Source: Alphaproteobacteria bacterium
GTDB taxonomy: Bacteria; Pseudomonadota; Alphaproteobacteria; SHVZ01
DNA: 64,000 nucleotides
Reading direction: 5' to 3'
Assembly (NCBI GenBank): GCA_041906305.1
Contig: JAYRJL010000004.1
Location: 264,334-328,333 of the forward strand
Positions 2,084 to 59,226 of this stretch are shown here, in pieces. Position 1 is the stretch's first letter; each line of letters opens with the position of its first letter. The notes under the pieces are model-generated. The model made no database searches. It was given only the letters and a program-made list of their open reading frames with translations, and was not told where the DNA came from. The position numbers were made by a program, and so were the translations under genes.

Positions 2084-3538
2084 TCAGACCGTCTCGGTCA
2101 GCAGCGAGAGCTGCTGGGTCTGGCCTTCGAGCTGGTCGACCAGCGGGATCGGGTAGTCGCCGGTGAAGCAGGCATCGCAGTACTGCGGGTTGGCCGTGTC
2201 GCGGCCCGTCTTGCCCATCGCCCGATAAAGTCCGTCGAGCGAGATGAAGGCCAGCGAGTCCGCGCCGATGAACTCGGCCATGCCTTTGAGGTCCATGCGG
2301 GCGGCGAGCAGCTTGGAACGCTCCGGGGTGTCGACGCCGTAGAAGCAGGAATGCGTGGTCGGCGGGCTGGCGATGCGGAAATGCACTTCCTTGGCTCCGG
2401 CCTGGCGGACCATCTGGATGATCTTGGTCGAGGTGGTGCCGCGGACGATGGAGTCGTCCACGAGGATCACGCGCTTGCCTTCGATCTGGGCGCGGTTGGC
2501 GTTGTGCTTCAGCTTCACGCCGAGATGGCGGATGTGGTCGCTCGGCTCGATGAAGGTGCGGCCGACATAGTGGTTGCGGATGATGCCGAGCTCGAACGGG
2601 ATTCCGCTCTCGGCGGCGTAGCCGATCGCCGCAGGCACGCCGGAATCCGGCACCGGGATCACGAGGTCGGCATCGACGCCGCTTTCGCGGGAAAGCTCGG
2701 CGCCGATGCGCTTGCGCGCCTCGTAGACGCTCGATCCCTCGACGACGCTGTCGGGGCGCGCGAAGTAGATGTACTCGAAGATGCAGAAGCGCTTCTGCTG
2801 CTCGCGGAAGGGCTTGTGGCTGTGCACGCCGGTGTCGTCGATGACGACGACTTCGCCGGCTTCGATGTCGCGCACGAACTCGGCGCCGATGATGTCGAGG
2901 CCGCAGGTCTCGGAGGCCAGGATGTACGCGTCGCCGAGCTTGCCCAGCACCAGCGGACGCACGCCATGTGGATCGCGGACGCCGATCAGCCCGGCAGGAG
3001 ACAGAGCCACCAGGGAATACGCGCCCTCGACCTGGCGCATCGCGCCGACCAGCCGGTCGATCACGCTCAAGCCGCGGCCGAGCGCCATCAGGTGGACGAT
3101 GACCTCGCTGTCGGTCGTCGACTGGAATAGGCAGCCGCGGCGGACGAGGTCCTTCCGGAGCTCCATCGCGTTGGTGAGGTTGCCGTTGTGGCCGACGGCG
3201 AAGCCGCCGGACTCGAACTCGGCGAACAGCGGCTGCGAGTTGCGCGCGACCGTGGCGCCGGTGGTGGCGTAGCGGTTGTGGCCGATCGCGGCGTGGCCCT
3301 TGAGGCGCTGGATGACGGCGGGGTCGCCGAAGTTGTCGCCGACGTGACCGAGCCCCCGATGTGCCGAGAACTGCTGGCCGTCGAAGGCGACGATGCCGGT
3401 CGCCTCCTGGCCGCGGTGCTGCTGGGCATGCAGGCCGAGCGCGGTATGCGCCGCCGCATCGGGCGTGCCGTAGATGCCGAACAGCGCGCACTCTTCGTGC
3501 AGCTTGTCGTCGTCGAAGGGGCTGGTCGTGAAGGTCAT
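2084..3538 (-). CDS. purF: amidophosphoribosyltransferase
   Basis: 484-aa ORF; the mature N-terminal Cys lies in the CALFGIYG motif, followed by the Ntn glutaminase and PRTase domains. Confidence 0.95.
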   Translation of the reverse strand: MTFTTSPFDDDKLHEECALFGIYGTPDAAAHTALGLHAQQHRGQEATGIVAFDGQQFSAHRGLGHVGDNFGDPAVIQRLKGHAAIGHNRYATTGATVARNSQPLFAEFESGGFAVGHNGNLTNAMELRKDLVRRGCLFQSTTDSEVIVHLMALGRGLSVIDRLVGAMRQVEGAYSLVALSPAGLIGVRDPHGVRPLVLGKLGDAYILASETCGLDIIGAEFVRDIEAGEVVVIDDTGVHSHKPFREQQKRFCIFEYIYFARPDSVVEGSSVYEARKRIGAELSRESGVDADLVIPVPDSGVPAAIGYAAESGIPFELGIIRNHYVGRTFIEPSDHIRHLGVKLKHNANRAQIEGKRVILVDDSIVRGTTSTKIIQMVRQAGAKEVHFRIASPPTTHSCFYGVDTPERSKLLAARMDLKGMAEFIGADSLAFISLDGLYRAMGKTGRDTANPQYCDACFTGDYPIPLVDQLEGQTQQLSLLTETV

Positions 3539-20047: not shown

Positions 20048-21052
20048 ATGCGCATGCGCATCGCCGCGGGAGCGCTGCTGGTCCTGCTGGTCGTCGGCGT
20101 CGTCGGTGCGAAATGGTGGGATCGCCAGATCGTCAAGCCGGGCCCGGCGCCGATCGCCCGAACGATCCTGTTCCCGCGCGGCGTCGGCCTGACCGAGATC
20201 GCCGAGAAGCTCGAGAACGACGGCCTCGTCCCGCATCGCTACATCTTCCAGGCGGCGGCCTGGACGCTCGGCCACGGCCGCGCACTGAAGGCCGGCGAGT
20301 ATGCGATCCCGCCGCATGCGAGCCTTCGCGACATCGTCAACATCCTGGCCTCGGGCCGCGTCGTCGTTCGCCGAGTGGTCATCCCCGAGGGGCTGACCGT
20401 CCGCCAGGCCGTGGCGGTGCTGGCCTCGGCCGAAGGCATGGAAGGCACCGTCTCGGCCGATGCGCTCAAGGAAGGCGAGTTGCTTCCGGCCACCTACAAC
20501 TACGTCTGGGGCGACGAGCGCGGCCGCATGCTCGTGCGCATGCGCTCGGGCATGAACGAGCTGGTCGAGCGCACCTGGAAGGATCGCGCGCCGAACCTGC
20601 CGATCTCGACGGCGGCCGAGGCGGTGACGCTGGCGTCGATCGTCGAGAAGGAGACAGGCAAGCCGAGCGAACGCGCGCTGATCGCGCGCGTCTTCTACAA
20701 CCGGCTCAAAGCCGGCATGAAGCTTCAGTCCGATCCGACCGTCGCCTACGGCATCGCACCGGGCGGCGAGCTCGGTCGGCCGCTGACGCGCGCCGATCTC
20801 CGCCAGCCGCATCCCTACAACACCTACGTGATCGACGGATTGCCGCCGGGCCCGATCGCCAATCCGGGCAAGGCCGCGCTCGAAGCGGTGGCGAAGCCGG
20901 CCGAGAGCGATGCGCTCTACTTCGTCGCCGACGGCAATGGCGGGCACGCCTTCGCCCGGACGCTGGCCGAGCACAACCGCAACGTCGCGCAGTACCGCCG
21001 CCTCATGCGGGAGCGCGGTCAGCCGCTGCCGCCGGAGCTTCCGGAGGAGTAG
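20048..21052 (+). CDS. mltG: endolytic murein transglycosylase MltG (YceG)
   Basis: N-terminal TM segment followed by a YceG domain; conserved fabF-mltG linkage. Confidence 0.85.
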   Translation: MRMRIAAGALLVLLVVGVVGAKWWDRQIVKPGPAPIARTILFPRGVGLTEIAEKLENDGLVPHRYIFQAAAWTLGHGRALKAGEYAIPPHASLRDIVNILASGRVVVRRVVIPEGLTVRQAVAVLASAEGMEGTVSADALKEGELLPATYNYVWGDERGRMLVRMRSGMNELVERTWKDRAPNLPISTAAEAVTLASIVEKETGKPSERALIARVFYNRLKAGMKLQSDPTVAYGIAPGGELGRPLTRADLRQPHPYNTYVIDGLPPGPIANPGKAALEAVAKPAESDALYFVADGNGGHAFARTLAEHNRNVAQYRRLMRERGQPLPPELPEE

Positions 21053-21644
21053 CGCGCGCCTCGGCGAGCTCGGCCTCGAGCGTCTTGATGCGATCGGTGA
21101 GGGAGTCGATCGCCGCCATCACCTCCTCGGCCGGGAACATCTGAGGGATGTGCTGCGGACAGTTTCGGCTCCACGCAGCGATCGTGAACAGGATCGCCTG
21201 CTCGGGCGTCGCCTCGTAGCCCTCGGGGAAGAGGCGCGCGATCGTCTCCTTGTCGTCGACGACGCGCGCCGTGCCCCAGATCTTCACGCGCCGCCGGTTG
21301 ACGTAGTCCATCAGGAACAGGAAGGCGCGCGGGTTGTCGGCGAGATTGCCGGTCGTCAGGTACTGGCGATTGCCGGTGAAGTCGGCGAAGCCGAGCGTCT
21401 TCTCGTCGATCACCTTGAGGAAGCCCTTCGGTCCGCCGCGATGCTGGATGTAGGGCTGTCCGTCCGGCGTCGCGGTGCCGAGATAGAACGACCTGACCTC
21501 GCCCAGGAACTGCGCGAGGTCTGGCGTCACGGTTGTCGGCCAGCCGCCCTTCTGCTCCTGCCGCGCGTACGCTGCGCGCGAGCCCCGCTCGGCCTGGATC
21601 GCCTTGACCCTCGGGGTGAAGGCCACGTCTGAGGACGGGTTCAT
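21003..21644 (-). CDS. pyridoxamine 5'-phosphate oxidase family (general stress protein 26-like) FMN-binding protein
   Basis: 213 aa with a PNPOx-like split-barrel. Divergent from the LysR regulator. Its 3' end overlaps mltG by 50 nt. Confidence 0.7.
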   Translation of the reverse strand: MNPSSDVAFTPRVKAIQAERGSRAAYARQEQKGGWPTTVTPDLAQFLGEVRSFYLGTATPDGQPYIQHRGGPKGFLKVIDEKTLGFADFTGNRQYLTTGNLADNPRAFLFLMDYVNRRRVKIWGTARVVDDKETIARLFPEGYEATPEQAILFTIAAWSRNCPQHIPQMFPAEEVMAAIDSLTDRIKTLEAELAEARATPPEAPAAAADRAPA

Positions 21645-40580: not shown

Positions 40581-40946
40581 ATGCCTAAGACCGTCATGAT
40601 CGTCGAAGACAATGAGCTCAACATGAAGCTCTTCAACGATCTGCTCGAGGCCAACGGCTACAATATCATTCAAACGCGCGATGGGCTGGAGGCTCTGAAG
40701 CTCGCCCGCCAGCACAAGCCCGACCTGATCCTGATGGACATCCAGCTGCCCGAGGTCTCCGGCCTGGAAGTCACCAAGTGGATCAAGGAAGACGACAACC
40801 TCAAATCCATCCCGATCATCGCGGTCACCGCCTTCGCGATGAAAGGCGACGAGGAGAAGATCCGCGAAGGCGGATGCGAGGCCTACATCGCCAAGCCGAT
40901 CTCCGTCGCGACATTCCTGCAGACGGTCCAGCGCTTCCTCCAGTAG
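40581..40946 (+). CDS. divK: single-domain response regulator DivK
   Basis: 121-aa stand-alone receiver ([18 protein letters not shown] ... [10 protein letters not shown]), immediately followed by pleD. Confidence 0.85.
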
Positions 40947-42637: not shown

Positions 42638-43201
42638 TCAGGCCCGGATGTCGACGACGCTTCTGCCAGACGGGGTCGGCGTTCCGCCGGAGGCCGAGGC
42701 GCCGCCGCCCCGGATCTTGGCCTCGAGGTCGGCCAGCGCCCGTTCGGTCTGGCGGATGTCGGCCTCCGCCTGGCGCTTGATCGAGGGGTCGCTCGGCTGG
42801 CCGTAGGGCTGGACCAGTGCCACCTGGGCCCGGACCAGCGCCAGCTTCAGCTGCTTGTAGAGGTTCTGGGCCTGCTCGCCGGAAACGGCGGGCGGCAGCG
42901 GCTGCTGGCCTTCCGGCGTCTTGGTCGTCTGGCCCTGGTCGAGGCCGGAATGGATGCTGTTGGCGAGAAGGCGCGTCTCGCGCGCGACCCGCTGGGCGGC
43001 GCGGACATCCCCGGTGGCGGCGGCGCTGCCGGCGGCGACCAGCAGGCCGGGCAGCTTGATCTTGGCGCTGTCCACGGCCTCCTTTGCGGACAGACCCTGA
43101 GGCGTCGCGCGCCCGGCGGCGGCAACGGCCTTCAAGGTATCCAGCGTCTTCGCCTGGGTCTCCGTCAGGACGGGACCGAGGCTCGGGGGCACGGTGACCA
43201 T
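42638..43201 (-). CDS. hypothetical Ala-rich protein, paralog A of a tandem pair
   Basis: 187 aa, MVTVPPS... ...SVVDIRA. GAGGAG Shine-Dalgarno. Shares an N-terminal MVT-P, a central KLxxLxxAAGxAxATGD and a C-terminal DV-A with the adjacent gene. Confidence 0.6.
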
Positions 43202-43271: not shown

Positions 43272-43895
43272 TCACGCATCCACGTCGATCATATGCCCGG
43301 CCGGCTGGGCGGACAGGGAGCCCGAGAGCGACTGGAGTTCCTTCTCGCCGTCGCGCAACGCCCTTTCGACTTCCTTGATCTCGTCGGGCGAGGCACCGCG
43401 GATCCGCGCCGCGACAACCGCGAGCCTCAGCTTGTCGACGACCTTCTTCAGTTCCTTCACCAGCTCCTTGCCGCCTTCGCGCGCCTGATCCAGATCGGTG
43501 CCGGATCGCTCGGTCGGCTGGGGTTTATCGCCAGGCTGAGCCGAGGCGTCCTTGAGGAGACCCGCGTCCTTGAGCGCCTGGGTCAGTTCCTTGGTCAGGG
43601 CGCGGACCTCGCGGATCGCCGAGCGCGCGAACCCCAGGTCGCCGGTCGCCGACGCGGCACCGGCCGCGAGCTTGATCGCCTCCAGCTTGCTGCGGAGAAA
43701 GTCGACCTTCGCGGCGGCCGCCTTCTTCGGCGCCTCCTTCATCTCGGCGTGGACATTGTCGAGCGTGGCGAGCGCATCGGCCTGCGCGCGCGTCGGCACC
43801 GGCCGATGCTTCAAGCGGTCGAGCGCGAGGGCGGCGACGGAAGACGTCGCAAAATCGGTCGGGGTACTTAAGGCGGGTCCGGGAAGGGTGACCAT
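43272..43895 (-). CDS. hypothetical Ala/Lys-rich protein, paralog B of a tandem pair
   Basis: 207 aa, MVTLPGP... ...HMIDVDA. Clear block similarity to paralog A. Confidence 0.6.
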   Translation of the reverse strand: MVTLPGPALSTPTDFATSSVAALALDRLKHRPVPTRAQADALATLDNVHAEMKEAPKKAAAAKVDFLRSKLEAIKLAAGAASATGDLGFARSAIREVRALTKELTQALKDAGLLKDASAQPGDKPQPTERSGTDLDQAREGGKELVKELKKVVDKLRLAVVAARIRGASPDEIKEVERALRDGEKELQSLSGSLSAQPAGHMIDVDA

Positions 43896-44009: not shown

Positions 44010-45569
44010 TTAAGGCGTGAGCGCGACCTGTCCCTGGCGCGAGGCGAGGGCAAAAAGGCCACTCTCCTCAAGCAGTTGCTGGGCGACGCGCACCTCGAAA
44101 TCGGACTCGGCCGACTTCGTCGGGCAGGCCTTGCGGGCCGCCTCGGCTCCTGCGACTTCGCCCTGCCGGATGAAGGTGGCGCGCTGGGCATAGGCCTGGC
44201 CGATCTCCGGCGCATTTCGGCGCAGGTCGGCGATCAGCGCAGCAGGATCGCCGGCATGGTGGCTGGTGCAGACGCTCGGCAGCACGCCGATCTTGTGCCA
44301 GGCCTGACCCGAGGGGCCCTGCATCCGCGCCCAGGTGATGGTCATCTCGCCGTCGTTCGGCAGGCGCATGACCGTCTGGACGCTGCCCTTGCCGTAGGAG
44401 GTCGAGCCGATCACCACCGCACGGTGGTTGTCCTGCAGCGCCGCCGCGACGATCTCGGCCGCGGAAGCGGATCCGCCGTTGATCAGGACGACCATCGGCA
44501 GGCCATGGGTGATGTCGCCGTCGGTCGCGCGATAGCTCTGCTTCGCCCGCGGATGGCGGCCCTCGGTCGCGAGAATGGTTCCCTCGTTGAGGAAGAGGTC
44601 GGAGACGTAGACCGCCTGGTCGAGAAGCCCGCCGGGATTTCCGCGCAGGTCCAGGATCAGCCCCTTGAGGCCGGGGCCGTGGTTCTTCATCGCGGTATCG
44701 ACGGCTTCCTCGACCTGCTTGGCCGTCCGCTGATTGAACCCGGTGACACGGATATGGGCCGCTCCGCCCTCGTGCTTGACCAGGACGGTCGCGGGCACGA
44801 TGCGCGAGCGCTTGAGCGCCATGTCGAACTGCTTGCCGTCCCGTTCGATCACCAGCTTGATGGTCGAGTCGATCGGGCCGCGCAGCTTGTCCAGTACGTC
44901 CGGCGACGGCATGCCGGACAGCGTGGCGCCGTCGGCCGCGACGATGCGGTCGCCGTCGCGAAGGCCGGCGCGGGAGGCCGGGGTCTCCGGCATGACCGAG
45001 GAGACGGCGACGCCGGTCTCGTCGATCTTGAGGGTCACGCCGATGCCGCCGAAGCCCTCGCGGCTGGCCCGGGACTGGCGCGCCGCATCGGCCGAGGAGT
45101 AGCGCGAGAACGCGTCGAGGTCGGCGAGCTCGGCCTCGAACACCGCTTTGTAAATCGCCTCCGAGGAGGCGTCCTTGAGCGGCGCGAAATGGAGGCGGCT
45201 CTCGGCCACGACGTCGGAGGTGAAGCGGGCCCAGCGGTTCGGGTCGTCCCCGGTCGGGAGCGCGATCGGCCGGGTGTCCGTCTTGCCGTAGGTCAGCCGG
45301 ATCTGGCGGTCGTCGGCGGAGAAGGCGAAGGCGGGGTCGAGGGTCTTCAGACCGTTCAGCCCATGCAGGGCCAGCTTCCGCATGTCGACGCGGTCGATGT
45401 AGTAGTCGGACAGACCGTCATATCCGACGCCGAAGACGTCGCGGGCACGGTCGAGGCCGGCGTTCTGGGGAACCTGATCGGACGAGGAGGCGCAGCCGGC
45501 GCTGAGGAGGAGGGCGAGCACGGTGCCGGCGCGGCCGGCGCTTTGAAGGCGGTGCGTAGTCAGTTTCAT
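44010..45569 (-). CDS. ctpA: S41 family C-terminal processing peptidase (CtpA/Prc-like) lipoprotein
   Basis: Lipobox LLSAGCAS, a PDZ domain (GIGVTLKIDETGVAVSSVMPETPASRAGLRDGDRIVA), and the catalytic Ser/Lys region (GGSASAAE ... K). Start MKLTTHRLQ at 45569. Confidence 0.85.
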   Translation of the reverse strand: MKLTTHRLQSAGRAGTVLALLLSAGCASSSDQVPQNAGLDRARDVFGVGYDGLSDYYIDRVDMRKLALHGLNGLKTLDPAFAFSADDRQIRLTYGKTDTRPIALPTGDDPNRWARFTSDVVAESRLHFAPLKDASSEAIYKAVFEAELADLDAFSRYSSADAARQSRASREGFGGIGVTLKIDETGVAVSSVMPETPASRAGLRDGDRIVAADGATLSGMPSPDVLDKLRGPIDSTIKLVIERDGKQFDMALKRSRIVPATVLVKHEGGAAHIRVTGFNQRTAKQVEEAVDTAMKNHGPGLKGLILDLRGNPGGLLDQAVYVSDLFLNEGTILATEGRHPRAKQSYRATDGDITHGLPMVVLINGGSASAAEIVAAALQDNHRAVVIGSTSYGKGSVQTVMRLPNDGEMTITWARMQGPSGQAWHKIGVLPSVCTSHHAGDPAALIADLRRNAPEIGQAYAQRATFIRQGEVAGAEAARKACPTKSAESDFEVRVAQQLLEESGLFALASRQGQVALTP

Positions 45570-45711
45570 CCGAAGGGCGTCCGATCTACTCAAGAGGGCC
45601 ATCGGGGATAAGCATGGAATGTGCCGATTTGCGGTGCAAAAATCTAGTAAGTTGCTTCCAAAATCGTGAAGCTTCGGAACTTTTCGGTGATTTTCTGTAA
45701 GTCACGGACCG

Positions 45712-46278
45712 ATGCCTGACCTCCCGAGCATTGCCGAATTGCGCGAGCGAGTCGCGAGCGCGGTATTGGGGGAAGTTCTGACCTACTGGTCGAGCTTCTA
45801 TGATCGCGGCGTGCTTCCCGCCTTCGACGACGTCGAACCGTGGCAGATCAAGAAGGCCCTTCCTTATGTCTGGATCTGGCGGCGGGAGGTCGAGGCGGAC
45901 CGTTTTTTCTGCCGGGTCTGCGGGGAGCATGTGAACTACATCTTCGGCCGCAATCTCTCCGGCAAGTCCTGCGAGGAGGCGATGCCGTCTGAGATGGCGG
46001 CCGAGGCACAGGCGCGCTGGCGGCGCCTGATCGACGACCGGCTGGCCCATCACCTGACCGGCTGCGTCTACAGCTACGTCGGTCAGCGCGTGATGGGCGA
46101 GCGCCTGATCCTGCCTCTGGCCCCCTCGAGGAACGATCGTGGCGGCGTGCTGGGCGTGACGGACGCCTCCCAGCCGACGCTCCGCCTCGACTCGCCGGTC
46201 GACCCGTCGAAGTTCATCGGCATCGGGGCCGGCGAGCGACACGACTACGACGCCGATCCGGCCCGCGCCAATGACTGA
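45712..46278 (+). CDS. PAS_5 (PF07310-like) alphaproteobacterial PAS-fold protein, paralog 1
   Basis: 188 aa; motif YW..F...GVLPAFDDVEPWQIKKALPYVWIW ... DRFFCRVCGEHVN. Confidence 0.6.
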   Translation: MPDLPSIAELRERVASAVLGEVLTYWSSFYDRGVLPAFDDVEPWQIKKALPYVWIWRREVEADRFFCRVCGEHVNYIFGRNLSGKSCEEAMPSEMAAEAQARWRRLIDDRLAHHLTGCVYSYVGQRVMGERLILPLAPSRNDRGGVLGVTDASQPTLRLDSPVDPSKFIGIGAGERHDYDADPARAND

Positions 46279-46849
46279 GAAGCTTCCCTCGGTCGCGGAG
46301 ATCGCCGGCGGCATACGCAGCCCGGCCGTCCGCGCCGTCTATGACTTCTGGATGTCCTTCTGGACCAGAGGTGTTCTCCCGTCTTTCGACGACGTCGATC
46401 CGGGTGCGATCAGGGAGGCGTTGCCTTACCTCTGGGTGATCAAGTACGAGCGGGCGGACGACCGTTTCAGCTATCGCATAGTCGGCGAAGAGGTGAACCG
46501 CTTCTTTCGCCGCAACATGTCTGGCGCGCAGGTCGATGCGATGCCCGTCGACCTCGCCGACGTCTTCAAAGGACGGTGCCGTCGCGTGGCCGAGAACCGC
46601 CAGGCGCTGCACCTGGTGGGCAAGATCTATCGGCTGGTCGGCTACGACGCCTTCGGCGAGAGGATGTACCTGCCGCTCGCGCCCTCGCGCAGCGACGACG
46701 GCGGCGTCCTCGGCGTCACCGACGCACGCGGGCATTTCGTCGACGAGAAGATCCTCCAGGACACCGGTGGCAACATCGTCGCTATCCGCGACGGCTCTTA
46801 CCAGGTCTACGACGCGGCGCCCCGGAGCGAGTCTCAGGGCGGCGCTTGA
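46271..46849 (+). CDS. PAS_5 (PF07310-like) protein, paralog 2, translationally coupled to paralog 1
   Basis: 192 aa. ATGACTGA overlap with the upstream paralog. Same motif set (FW.SFWTRGVLPSFDDVDPGAIREALPYLWVI ... DRFSYRIVGEEVN). Confidence 0.6.
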   Translation: MTEKLPSVAEIAGGIRSPAVRAVYDFWMSFWTRGVLPSFDDVDPGAIREALPYLWVIKYERADDRFSYRIVGEEVNRFFRRNMSGAQVDAMPVDLADVFKGRCRRVAENRQALHLVGKIYRLVGYDAFGERMYLPLAPSRSDDGGVLGVTDARGHFVDEKILQDTGGNIVAIRDGSYQVYDAAPRSESQGGA

Positions 46850-49004
46850 GCGGGCGTTCCGGCCGACCGTCGGCACGCGTCGCGTGCAGCAGGCTGAAGA
46901 CGAGTCCGCCTTTGACCGGGTCGGCGTCGGCGAGCCGCACCTGCACCTGCTGGCCCAGCTGATACGACACCCGCGACTTTCGTCCGATCAGCCGATGGTG
47001 CACCTCGTCATGCTCGAAATAGTCCGCGCCTAAAGTCGAGATCGGGATCAGCCCGTCGGCGCCGGTCTCGTCGAGGCGAATGAAAAGGCCGAAGCGGGAT
47101 ACGCCGCTGATGCGACCCTCGAACTCGCCGCCGACACGGCTCGACAGGAACAGAGCGGTGTAGCGGTCGACCGCGTCGCGTTCGGCGACCTGGGCACGGC
47201 GCTCGGTCATGGAGATCTGCTCGCCGATCTGGCGCATGCGCGCCGCCTCCGAGTCGTGCAATCCGTCGTCGCCGAGGCCGAGCGCCTTGATCAGCCCGCG
47301 ATGGACCAGCACGTCCGAGTAGCGTCGGATGGGCGAAGTGAAATGCGCGTAGCGCCGAAGCGCCAGGCCGAAATGGCCGAGGTTGTCGGGGCTGTACTGC
47401 GCCTGGGCCTGGGAGCGCAGCACCAGGTCGTTGACCATCTGCTTGTAGGACGTGTTCTCGGCGCGCTCGAGGAGCTTGGTGAAGCTCTTCGGCTGCAGAA
47501 CCTGCCCCTTCGGCAGCGACAGGCCGACTGAATCGAGGAACTGGCGAAGCCCGTCGAGCTTCTCGTAGGTCGGACGGTCGTGCACCCGGTACATGCAGGG
47601 CACGCCCTTGGCCTCCAGCGCCTCGGCCGCGGCGACGTTGGCGGCGATCATGAACTCCTCGATCAGCTTGTGGCTGTCGAAGCGCGAGCGCATGCGGATC
47701 GCCAGCACGTCGCCATCGGGGCCGAGATAGACGCGGCGTTCCGGGATGTCGAGGTCGAGCGTGCCGCGCTTCTCTCGCGCCTTCGAAAGCGCGCGATAGG
47801 CCCCGTAGAGAGGCTCGATCACGCGCTCCATCAGCGGGCCTGTGGTGTCGTCCGGCCGCCCGTCCTTCGCATTCTGCGCCTGCTCGTAGGTCAGGCGCGC
47901 GGCCGAGCGCATCAGCGCCCGGCCGAAGCGGTGCGAGACGAGTCGGCCCTCCTTGTCGAGCTTCATGAAGCACGCCATCACGGGACGCGGGACCTTCGGC
48001 TTCAGCGAGCAGAGCTCGTTCGACAGGGCCTCGGGCAGCATCGGCACGACGCGGTCGGGCAGGTAGACCGAGTTGCCGCGCTGGAAGGCGGAACGGTCGA
48101 GCGGGCTTCCCGGCGTCACGTAGTGGGCGACGTCGGCGATCGCGACGACGATCTTCCAGCCTTCGCCGTCGGGCTCGGCGAAGACGGCGTCGTCGAAGTC
48201 GCGGGCATCGTCGCCGTCGATGGTGACGAGCGGTACGTCACGCAAATCCTCGCGCGTGCCGGGCTCGGTGACGGGCTTCGCCGACTCCGCCTGGACGATC
48301 GCGTCGTGCGGGAACTCGACCGGGATGCCGTGAGCGGCGACCGCGAGCGCACCGATCGCGCGCGGATCGTCGGCCGATCCCAGGCGTTCGACGATGCGCG
48401 CCTCGGGCAAGCCGGCGCGCGCGGTGGTCAGCACCTCGGCCGAGACGAGCTCGCCGTCCTTGGCGCCGCCGGAATCCGCGCGCGAGACCCGGAACTCGGT
48501 GCGGCTCCGCTTGTCGGCCGGCACCAGTCGCCCGCCTTCGGAACTCAGGCGGTACGTGCCGACGACACGATCGGCGGTGGTCGGGATGCGGCGAAGCACG
48601 CGGGCTTCGTAAAGGCGCGAGGATCGCTTGGTGAGGCGCGCGAGCACGCGCGTGCCGGTCAGGATCGCCGGCGCGCCGGGGCGCTCGACCACGATGATCG
48701 TCGGCGGTTCCTTCTCGCCTTCCCAGACCATCGGCGTGGCGAGCGTGTCGCCGTCCTCGCTGGTGCCGGCGATCACGATCGGCATCACCTCGGCGAGGCG
48801 GCCGGGAGGTGGTGCGGCCTTCCTGACCTTGCCCACGGTGCCTTCGGCCGAGAGTTCGCGTAGCATCGCCTTCAAGGCGACGCGATCCTCGCCCTTCACC
48901 TGGAAGGCGCGCGCGATCTCGCGCTTGCCGACCGGCGTCGGACTTTCGGTGATGAAGGTCCGAAGCTGGTCCTTGGTCGGGAGCGGGGGCTTCTTGCGCG
49001 CCAT
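46782..49004 (-). CDS. rnr: ribonuclease R
   Basis: 740 aa; cold-shock/OB domains, the RNB catalytic domain (DGDDARDFDDAV), an S1 domain and a basic C-terminal tail. Its 3' end overlaps the second PAS_5 gene by 68 nt. Confidence 0.9.
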   Translation of the reverse strand: MARKKPPLPTKDQLRTFITESPTPVGKREIARAFQVKGEDRVALKAMLRELSAEGTVGKVRKAAPPPGRLAEVMPIVIAGTSEDGDTLATPMVWEGEKEPPTIIVVERPGAPAILTGTRVLARLTKRSSRLYEARVLRRIPTTADRVVGTYRLSSEGGRLVPADKRSRTEFRVSRADSGGAKDGELVSAEVLTTARAGLPEARIVERLGSADDPRAIGALAVAAHGIPVEFPHDAIVQAESAKPVTEPGTREDLRDVPLVTIDGDDARDFDDAVFAEPDGEGWKIVVAIADVAHYVTPGSPLDRSAFQRGNSVYLPDRVVPMLPEALSNELCSLKPKVPRPVMACFMKLDKEGRLVSHRFGRALMRSAARLTYEQAQNAKDGRPDDTTGPLMERVIEPLYGAYRALSKAREKRGTLDLDIPERRVYLGPDGDVLAIRMRSRFDSHKLIEEFMIAANVAAAEALEAKGVPCMYRVHDRPTYEKLDGLRQFLDSVGLSLPKGQVLQPKSFTKLLERAENTSYKQMVNDLVLRSQAQAQYSPDNLGHFGLALRRYAHFTSPIRRYSDVLVHRGLIKALGLGDDGLHDSEAARMRQIGEQISMTERRAQVAERDAVDRYTALFLSSRVGGEFEGRISGVSRFGLFIRLDETGADGLIPISTLGADYFEHDEVHHRLIGRKSRVSYQLGQQVQVRLADADPVKGGLVFSLLHATRADGRPERPLKRRPETRSGAPRRRPGKSRRG

Positions 49005-53537: not shown

Positions 53538-54830
53538 TCAGCTTCCTCTCGCGTCGTGGACGACGCGGCCGGAGGTTACCGTGACGAGAACCTTGCCTTC
53601 GACCGGGCGTCCGTCGAAAGGCGAGTTCTTGGATTTGGAGCGGAAGCTGTCGACGTCGATCCGGTGGGCGCGCTCCGGATCGAAGAGGACCAGGTCGGCG
53701 CGGCGTCCCTTCGCCATCCGACCGGTCTCGAGGCCCAGTAGTGCGGCGGGGGCCGAGGTAATCTTCTGCAACGCCAATTGCAGTTTCAGGTGATTGTTGT
53801 GAAATAACTCTAAAGTCAGCGGTAATAACGTTTCCAGCCCGAGGATGCCCGAGGCCGCCTGGGCGAACGGTAGTCTTTTCGAGTCGGCATCATGGGGGGC
53901 ATGGTCGGAGGCGATGGCATCGATAGTACCGTCGGTAAGCCCCTCGACGATGGCGCGGCGATCGTCTTCGGAACGGAGCGGGGGTGACAGCTTGGCGAAG
54001 GTCCGGTAGTCGCCGACGGCGGTCTCGTTGAGCGCGAAGTAGGGCGGCGCGGTATCGCAAGTCACTGATAAGCCGCGCTTCTTCGCCGCCCGTATGACCT
54101 CGACGCCGGCACGGGTGGAGAGATGGGCGGCGTGGTAGCGCCCACCCGTGAGTTCGACCAGGCGCATGTCGCGATCGAGCATGATGGCCTCGGCAGCGGC
54201 CGGAATACCCGAGAGACCGAGGCGGGTGGCGATCTCGCCTTCGTTCATCCCCGCATCCGAGGTCAGGGCCGGTTCTTCCGCATGGTTGAGGATAACTTGG
54301 CCGAATGTCTTGGCATACGAGAGGGCCCGGCGCATGACCAGGGCCGAGGAAACGGTCTGGGTCCCGTCCGTGAAGCCGACCGCGCCGGCCGCCGCCATGA
54401 GGCCGATCTCGGTCAGCTCCTTGCCGGCGAGGCCCTTGGTGAGGGCGCCATAGGTCCGAATGTCGACCAGACCGACCGCCTTGGCCCGGCGCTCGACGAA
54501 CTCGACCAGGGACGGTTCGTCGACCGGCGGCCGCGTGTTCGGGAGCGCGACCATGGTCCCGACACCGCCGGCGGCGGCGGCCTGGCTCGCCGTGTCGAAG
54601 TTCTCCTTGTGCTCCTCGCCCGGCTCGCGGAGCTGGACCCGCATGTCGACGAGGGCCGGGGCCAGGACCGTGCCCTTGCCGTCGATGACGTAGGCATCCT
54701 CGGGGATCCGGTCGAACAGCTTGGGCCCGAGATCGGCGATTTCGCCGTTGACGACAAGGAGTTCGCCCTTCTCGTCGCGGCCGCTCGCGGGGTCGATCAG
54801 GCGGACGTTGGTGAAGGCGATCTTGGTCAC
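53538..54830 (-). CDS. pyrC: dihydroorotase-like protein, probably non-catalytic PyrC' (HxH zinc motif replaced)
   Basis: 430-aa DHOase-family protein immediately downstream of pyrB. The canonical D-x-H-x-H zinc-ligand motif reads [11 protein letters not shown] here (His replaced by Met/Gln). A downstream SDHAPH Asp is retained. Confidence 0.75.

Positions 54831-59222: not shown

Positions 59223-59226
<4 letters not shown>

Follow-up and report, generated by a model that had tools for sequence, protein, structure and literature searches.

Tandem genes for two stand-alone PAS_5 proteins in the ctpA-rnr interval of uncultured Alphaproteobacteria

The stretch of alphaproteobacterial DNA analysed here (64,000 nt, hereafter the window) carries two consecutive genes, designated pasA and pasB, that encode stand-alone PAS_5 proteins. 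They are the product of a genuine and fairly ordinary lineage-specific gene duplication, and both copies are intact and under purifying selection. Our preferred interpretation, for which we consider the chances about even, is that they form a bicistronic operon of two diverged PAS_5 adaptors without output domain, which would act on partner signalling proteins. The main features of the locus are the following.

44010-45602, minus strand: longest open reading frame of ctpA, 530 aa, an S41 C-terminal processing peptidase with a PDZ domain
45570-45711, no strand assigned: ctpA-pasA divergent intergenic region, about 142 nt, from an alignment of nine loci
45712-46278, plus strand: pasA, 188 aa, stand-alone PAS_5 protein (open reading frame and PF07310 match)
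46271-46849, plus strand: pasB, 192 aa, stand-alone PAS_5 protein
46271-46278, plus strand: pasA/pasB stop/start overlap, 8 nt, ATGACTGA, read from the sequence
46782-46849, no strand assigned: convergent, antisense, dual-coding 3' overlap of pasB and rnr, 68 nt
46782-49004, minus strand: rnr (RNase R), TIGR02063 at 707.7 bits, with RNB, CSD2 and S1 domains

Two paralogs of the PAS_5 family

A preliminary description of the locus had reported two reading frames of 188 and 192 aa, an 8-nt overlap between them, a 68-nt overlap of the second with rnr, and an order of motifs common to both products. The list of open reading frames agrees with the positions and lengths of the two genes, ATGACTGA is seen in the sequence, and the coordinates of the rnr overlap are those given above. 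The common motif order is real as well, and well beyond what chance would give: BLASTP aligns the two proteins at 45% identity across 181 aa (E 6e-50), as true paralogs, and 38 positions are identical and invariant in both paralog clades. The GC content at third codon positions (GC3) is 0.85 for both genes and 0.82 to 0.97 for the other candidate genes of the window, a list pre-filtered at GC3 > 0.80. That pasA and pasB could be artefacts of open reading frame calling is ruled out by their Pfam matches, their GC3 and their orthologs.

The assignment to PAS_5, also proposed in the preliminary description, was borne out by a Pfam scan, in which both proteins exceeded the PF07310 gathering threshold of 22 bits. 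The score is higher for pasA (45.9 bits, E 6.5e-12, residues 20-149, model positions 7-135 of 137) than for pasB (31.5 bits, E 1.8e-7, model positions 2-135 of 137). No other Pfam domain was found above threshold in either protein, nor any output domain. Family-conserved residues were defined as those invariant or at least 90% conserved in a 30-sequence alignment that included distant representatives; in pasB numbering these are W27, P37, L51, W55, F66, R69, G72, G117, G129-E130-R131, P135, G148 and T150, and all are present in both proteins. The AlphaFold2 models (pLDDT 86.9 and pTM 0.85 for pasA, 92.0 and 0.88 for pasB) have their strands and helices in the canonical PAS order, with a helical cap added at the N-terminus and an extension at the C-terminus, and the five-stranded antiparallel sheet with flanking helices of the PAS fold is found in both.

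A profile search against 1.84 billion cluster representatives yielded 2,144 relatives at E <= 1e-3, 379 at E <= 1e-10 and only two at 1e-30; by this last figure, PAS_5 is a large family in which pasA and pasB form a narrow branch. All homolog sources that carry names are Alphaproteobacteria, which would fit the restriction to this class put forward in the preliminary description. Among the 150 best family representatives, 148 have a single matched stretch and 149 are 124 to 227 aa long; pasA and pasB, at 188 and 192 aa, have the same stand-alone architecture (about 150 to 220 aa, without output domain). The only two-domain fusion among these 150 is a metagenomic protein of 321 aa (P0155), in which two PAS_5 domains are joined and the two halves share 57% identity. 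This protein resembles pasA-pasB in having two PAS_5 domains that stem from a tandem duplication and are used together, but the duplication is an independent one, distant from pasA/pasB, and the link is a covalent fusion instead of translational coupling. Its existence suggests that a pair of PAS_5 domains is able to function as one unit.

A sequence search of the PDB found no PAS_5 relative at E values up to 10. With the pasA model as query, the best Foldseek matches were the PAS domains of short LOV proteins and of VqmA. The top match, to the short LOV proteins PpSB1-LOV and PpSB2-LOV (E 5e-4), shares with pasA a PAS core with flanking helices, the lack of an effector domain and the occurrence of paralog pairs within one genome; however, identity to pasA is 11 to 18%, and TM-scores are 0.38 to 0.51. 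No flavin-binding LOV signature was identified in pasA or pasB, and no cofactor is predicted for them. The eukaryotic bHLH-PAS heterodimers (ARNT with HIF or AhR) differ in being multi-domain transcription factors, and have no sequence relationship to pasA/pasB.

The preliminary description had further considered the family to be devoid of any assigned ligand or function. The statement on function has to be given up, as the Caulobacter crescentus protein MopJ (CCNA_00999) is a 165-aa single-domain PAS_5 protein that co-purifies with the kinase DivJ, is found at the poles, attenuates DivK and positions DivL, so that accumulation of CtrA is promoted; it is induced by GcrA and (p)ppGpp, and degraded by ClpXP (PMC4432633, PMC4620464). 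The statement on ligands stands, with none reported for MopJ in PMC4432633 or PMC4620464. Among the top-ranked literature matches for PF07310, PAS_5 or DUF1457, nothing relevant was found beyond the MopJ papers.

The MopJ equivalog model, NF051868, is the sole NCBIfam match for pasA and for pasB, with 38.1 and 29.1 bits, respectively, over profile positions 13-108 of 164, compared to an equivalog cut-off of 200 bits at full length. Judged by these scores, pasA and pasB are in the family of MopJ, yet are not MopJ orthologs. Common to all three are the PF07310 domain, a stand-alone length of 165 to 190 aa, the lack of an output domain and an alphaproteobacterial origin. The differences are several. 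MopJ is encoded by a single gene, and pasA-pasB is a coupled tandem pair; the NF051868 match of pasA and pasB is confined to their N-terminal 95 or so residues, and both bear an extra, conserved C-terminal extension of about 40 aa. MopJ also has a C-terminal Ala-Ala motif recognised by ClpXP and a GcrA/CcrM (GANTC)-dependent promoter (PMC4432633). In contrast, pasA and pasB have no conserved terminal Ala-Ala (pasA ends in ...AND and pasB in ...GGA, and the termini of the orthologs vary), and neither GANTC, which occurs at 1.8 per kb across the window, nor a TTAA CtrA box is found upstream of pasA, in 45570-45711.

Conservation of the pair and unequal fate of its members

Homolog searches and a genome scan showed that the duplicated arrangement is conserved in relatives. 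The same layout, with pasA-pasB divergent from ctpA and convergent with rnr, itself preceded by topA on the same strand, is present in seven other uncultured alphaproteobacterial species known from metagenome-assembled genomes (L005-L011). Identity to the window orthologs ranges in these species from 72 to 87% for pasA, 74 to 92% for pasB, 77 to 97% for ctpA and 84 to 96% for rnr, the two neighbours being better conserved than the pair. In the eight species with an intact pair, no frameshift or internal stop was found in either gene, and pairwise dN/dS was 0.11 to 0.28 for pasA and 0.07 to 0.36 for pasB, at dS values of 0.2 to 0.9 (up to 0.93 for pasA). The possibility that pasB is a pseudogene, which the preliminary description had raised by asking whether the second reading frame was a pseudogenised duplicate, is ruled out by these intact frames and dN/dS ratios.

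The dispensable copy turned out to be the first gene and not the second. Every lineage examined retains pasB in the ctpA-rnr interval, whereas pasA is lost or decayed in several of them. The most distant lineage (L015/L016, with ctpA 66 to 73% identical) has a single gene of pasB type in the ctpA-rnr gap. L013 and the pair-bearing L011 are sisters in the ctpA tree; in L013, the gene adjoining ctpA is of pasB type and pasA is absent from that place. In two independent assemblies (L014, positions 3-275, and P0040), pasA has an in-frame internal deletion of about 30 aa, by which the PAS core is deprived of its G and H strands; Cys70 is lost as well, and the frame stays open. The pasB of L014 is intact and has a 4-nt overlap with the deleted pasA.

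A separate observation concerns L013, where the pasB-type gene is itself broken after ...DRFTYR by unrelated sequence of lower GC content (2826-3026). The cause is either insertion of a mobile element or a chimeric join in the assembly.

A neighbour-joining tree groups all genes of pasB type, the single-copy ones among them, and has the pasA clade as their sister. The simplest history would be that the gene was duplicated in tandem long ago and that pasA was then lost, or decayed, more than once, with the reservation that long-branch effects are possible with neighbour-joining. The two clades are distinguished by 15 positions that are invariant within each of them and differ between them, among which are C67/Y and C118/K. 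Three cysteines, Cys67, Cys70 and Cys118, are invariant in the pasA clade, and the corresponding residues of pasB are Tyr, Val or Ala, and Lys, respectively. The C-terminal tails of the two proteins are also distinct. We conclude that pasA is the derived or accessory paralog.

One could go further and suppose that pasA is a redundant duplicate drifting to loss, and that pasB alone is functional. Its absence beside ctpA in L013 and L015/L016, and the deletion of PAS core strands in L014 and P0040, are in line with this. We nevertheless hold it to be highly improbable, as the low dN/dS ratios of pasA, obtained at dS values up to 0.93, and its uninterrupted frames in the eight intact-pair species speak against drift; moreover, pasA keeps all the family-invariant residues, and its PF07310 score is above that of pasB. 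On these grounds, pasA is clearly maintained by selection, at least within the sub-clade of the window. The persistence of pasB without an intact pasA (L013, L014 and L015/L016) implies that pasB can function alone. This would argue against an obligate form of the pasA-pasB heterodimer that the preliminary description had thought possible; a facultative one would be compatible with it.

Overlapping gene ends and intergenic DNA

At the junction, which reads GCC AAT GAC TGA, the ATG of pasB occupies 46271-46273 and the TGA of pasA 46276-46278. Stop and start overlap by 8 nt in the window and in L005, L007, L008, L009 and L010, and by 4 nt in L006 and L011, as well as in L014. No Shine-Dalgarno sequence (GGAG, GAGG or AGGA) was found in the window within the 21 nt before the start of pasA or of pasB; among the junction sequences of the relatives, L011 has a GGAG about 14 nt before the pasB start. 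The conserved overlap, present in all eight intact pairs, together with the lack of a Shine-Dalgarno sequence before the window pasB, makes it a reasonable inference that pasB is translationally coupled to pasA through termination-reinitiation, and the co-translation suggested in the preliminary description is upheld to that extent. Overlaps of 4 nt are also encountered between unrelated neighbours in the window (54827-54830 and 59223-59226), so that an overlap does not by itself imply a complex.

This leaves room for a different explanation, namely that the two genes are subfunctionalised, independent paralogs, each with its own cue or partner and acting as a homodimer, while the overlap reflects co-transcription and packing. 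As a rule, stand-alone PAS proteins with a PDB entry form homodimers, the short LOV proteins among them. The 15 clade-invariant differences, the distinct C-terminal tails, the solitary pasB of L015/L016 and the frequency of 4-nt overlaps in the window all fit independent paralogs. Two points count on the other side: the stop/start overlap in all eight species and the missing Shine-Dalgarno sequence of the window pasB tie the expression levels of the two genes together, and a fused protein with two PAS_5 domains (P0155) exists elsewhere. We regard independent action as possible, but are inclined to doubt it.

The 3' end of pasB also overlaps a neighbour. The pasB/rnr overlap measures 56 to 86 nt in nine of 11 lineages, and is replaced by a 16-nt gap in L009 and L010. 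Within it, the C-termini of both proteins are conserved (IRDGAYQVYDAAP for pasB, ...PRRRPGKRRRG for rnr), which identifies it as an antisense dual-coding segment. No intrinsic terminator was found between pasB and rnr, hence the two transcripts may overlap. A second apparent case of convergent overlap, about 50 nt long, was noted in the window between 20048-21052 (plus strand) and 21003-21644 (minus strand), from a rough GC3-based list of genes.

On the other side of the pair, ctpA probably starts at 45569 (MKLTT...), 11 codons downstream of the start of its longest reading frame, to give the 519 aa annotated in relatives. The length of about 142 nt for the ctpA-pasA intergenic region follows from this start. 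Read from 45569, the protein has a signal peptide with a lipobox-like LLSAGC, and the CtpA protease may be a lipoprotein. In the alignment of nine loci, the intergenic DNA is near-identical over about 110 nt, at coding dS values of 0.4 to 0.9. Loci without pasA still show conservation in the ctpA-proximal half; in the pasA-proximal half, conservation is limited to six pair-bearing lineages. The conserved DNA presumably consists of promoters and operators. It contains a TTGC-GGT-GCAA palindrome, a repeated GTAAGT and, with its end 9 nt ahead of the pasA ATG, a GGAAC-N16-GTAAG element. Such an element could belong to an ECF-type promoter, and the pasA mRNA could be leaderless, but this is only a lead; the EcfG motif (GGAAC-N16-17-CGTT) was not found upstream of pasA. 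Searches for sigma-70 promoters and intrinsic terminators gave no match in 45400-47100. In Rfam, 45300-47100 had no credible match at E values up to 1, and the window as a whole had none that reached a gathering threshold. The predicted RNA fold of the intergenic block has an energy of -12.3 kcal/mol, and a compensatory change affects two of its 21 predicted pairs. A riboswitch or small RNA was rejected on the basis of this weak energy and the low number of compensated pairs.

Genomic setting and proposed role

Downstream of the pair lies a housekeeping block, rnr-topA-dprA-plsY-pyrC-pyrB. In the upstream direction, beyond ctpA, are two unannotated tandem paralogs, then rpmG, and then a divergent operon of a receiver and a PleD-type gene, 3.3 kb upstream of pasA-pasB:

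40581-40946, plus strand: divK-like single-domain receiver, 121 aa, 99-100% identical in L007, L010 and L011
40956-42413, plus strand: PleD-family diguanylate cyclase, NF007135 at 622.6 bits against a cut-off of 474

The two unannotated genes between rpmG and ctpA (42638-43201, 187 aa, and 43272-43895, 207 aa, both on the minus strand) are paralogs of about 33% identity. Their products both begin with MVT.P and have no Pfam or NCBIfam match. They evolve fast, with 53 to 88% identity in relatives whose divK is 99 to 100% identical.

Given the action of MopJ on DivK, the proximity of the divK-pleD-like operon is weakly suggestive. As all the genomes compared are closely related and syntenic in general, this proximity is not independent evidence.

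The neighbourhood also lends itself to a non-signalling explanation, in which pasA and pasB are PAS-fold proteins that bind small molecules as carriers or chaperones, or in which their function is tied to ctpA or rnr. A PAS_5 gene is indeed found between ctpA and rnr in every lineage of the clade, and the 3' end shared in antisense by pasB and rnr is conserved. However, the same general synteny among close relatives weakens this observation, and MopJ, the one PAS_5 protein to have been characterised, is a signalling adaptor (PMC4432633). Neither ctpA nor rnr adjoins the more distant PAS_5 genes: the four examined are solitary and lie in unrelated contexts. A homolog search with the family profile added few proteins, all encoded on short contigs by single genes in unrelated contexts. 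We consider a role outside signalling very unlikely.

Returning to the pair of adaptors acting on signalling partners, the proposed scheme is as follows. Ribosomes that terminate on pasA would go on to translate pasB, and co-expression of the two would thereby be fixed. As neither protein has an effector domain, both would act by binding partner signalling proteins, in the way that MopJ acts with DivJ, DivK and DivL. The core adaptor would be pasB; pasA would be an optional modulator that works, most plausibly, by PAS-PAS hetero-oligomerisation and might add a thiol or redox input. The likeliest target would be a His-Asp relay of the cell cycle or a c-di-GMP relay, a proposal drawn from the divK-pleD genes 3.3 kb upstream and the weakest step of the scheme. 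The remote similarity to MopJ, and the lack of GANTC and of a CtrA box upstream of pasA, count against the scheme. Our confidence differs between its parts. A facultative pasA-pasB hetero-oligomer is a tentative proposal, and we lean slightly against it; the fused P0155 speaks for it indirectly, and the solitary distant PAS_5 genes speak against any general rule. A far more specific version, suggested by the Cys67-x-x-Cys70 and Cys118 residues present in pasA and not in pasB, and in which pasA is a thiol-, redox- or metal-sensing PAS subunit, made from a leaderless, coupled mRNA at a fixed ratio to pasB, and forms with it a heterodimer that gates a cell-cycle or c-di-GMP relay of the DivK/PleD type, seems to us unlikely.

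As the host organisms are uncultured and there is no sign of a new mechanism, the practical value of the pair is limited. Its interest lies in the family. PAS_5 is a large family, with about 2,100 clusters at 50% identity matching the profile, of which MopJ is the only member studied. If the more specific version with a sensing pasA subunit were true, pasA-pasB would be a two-subunit PAS sensor without output domain, a layout not described for the MopJ family. The clade offers a natural comparison, on one message, between a conserved core protein, pasB, and a diverged, cysteine-bearing and sometimes lost companion, pasA, and this comparison could help show how PAS proteins without output domain choose their partners.
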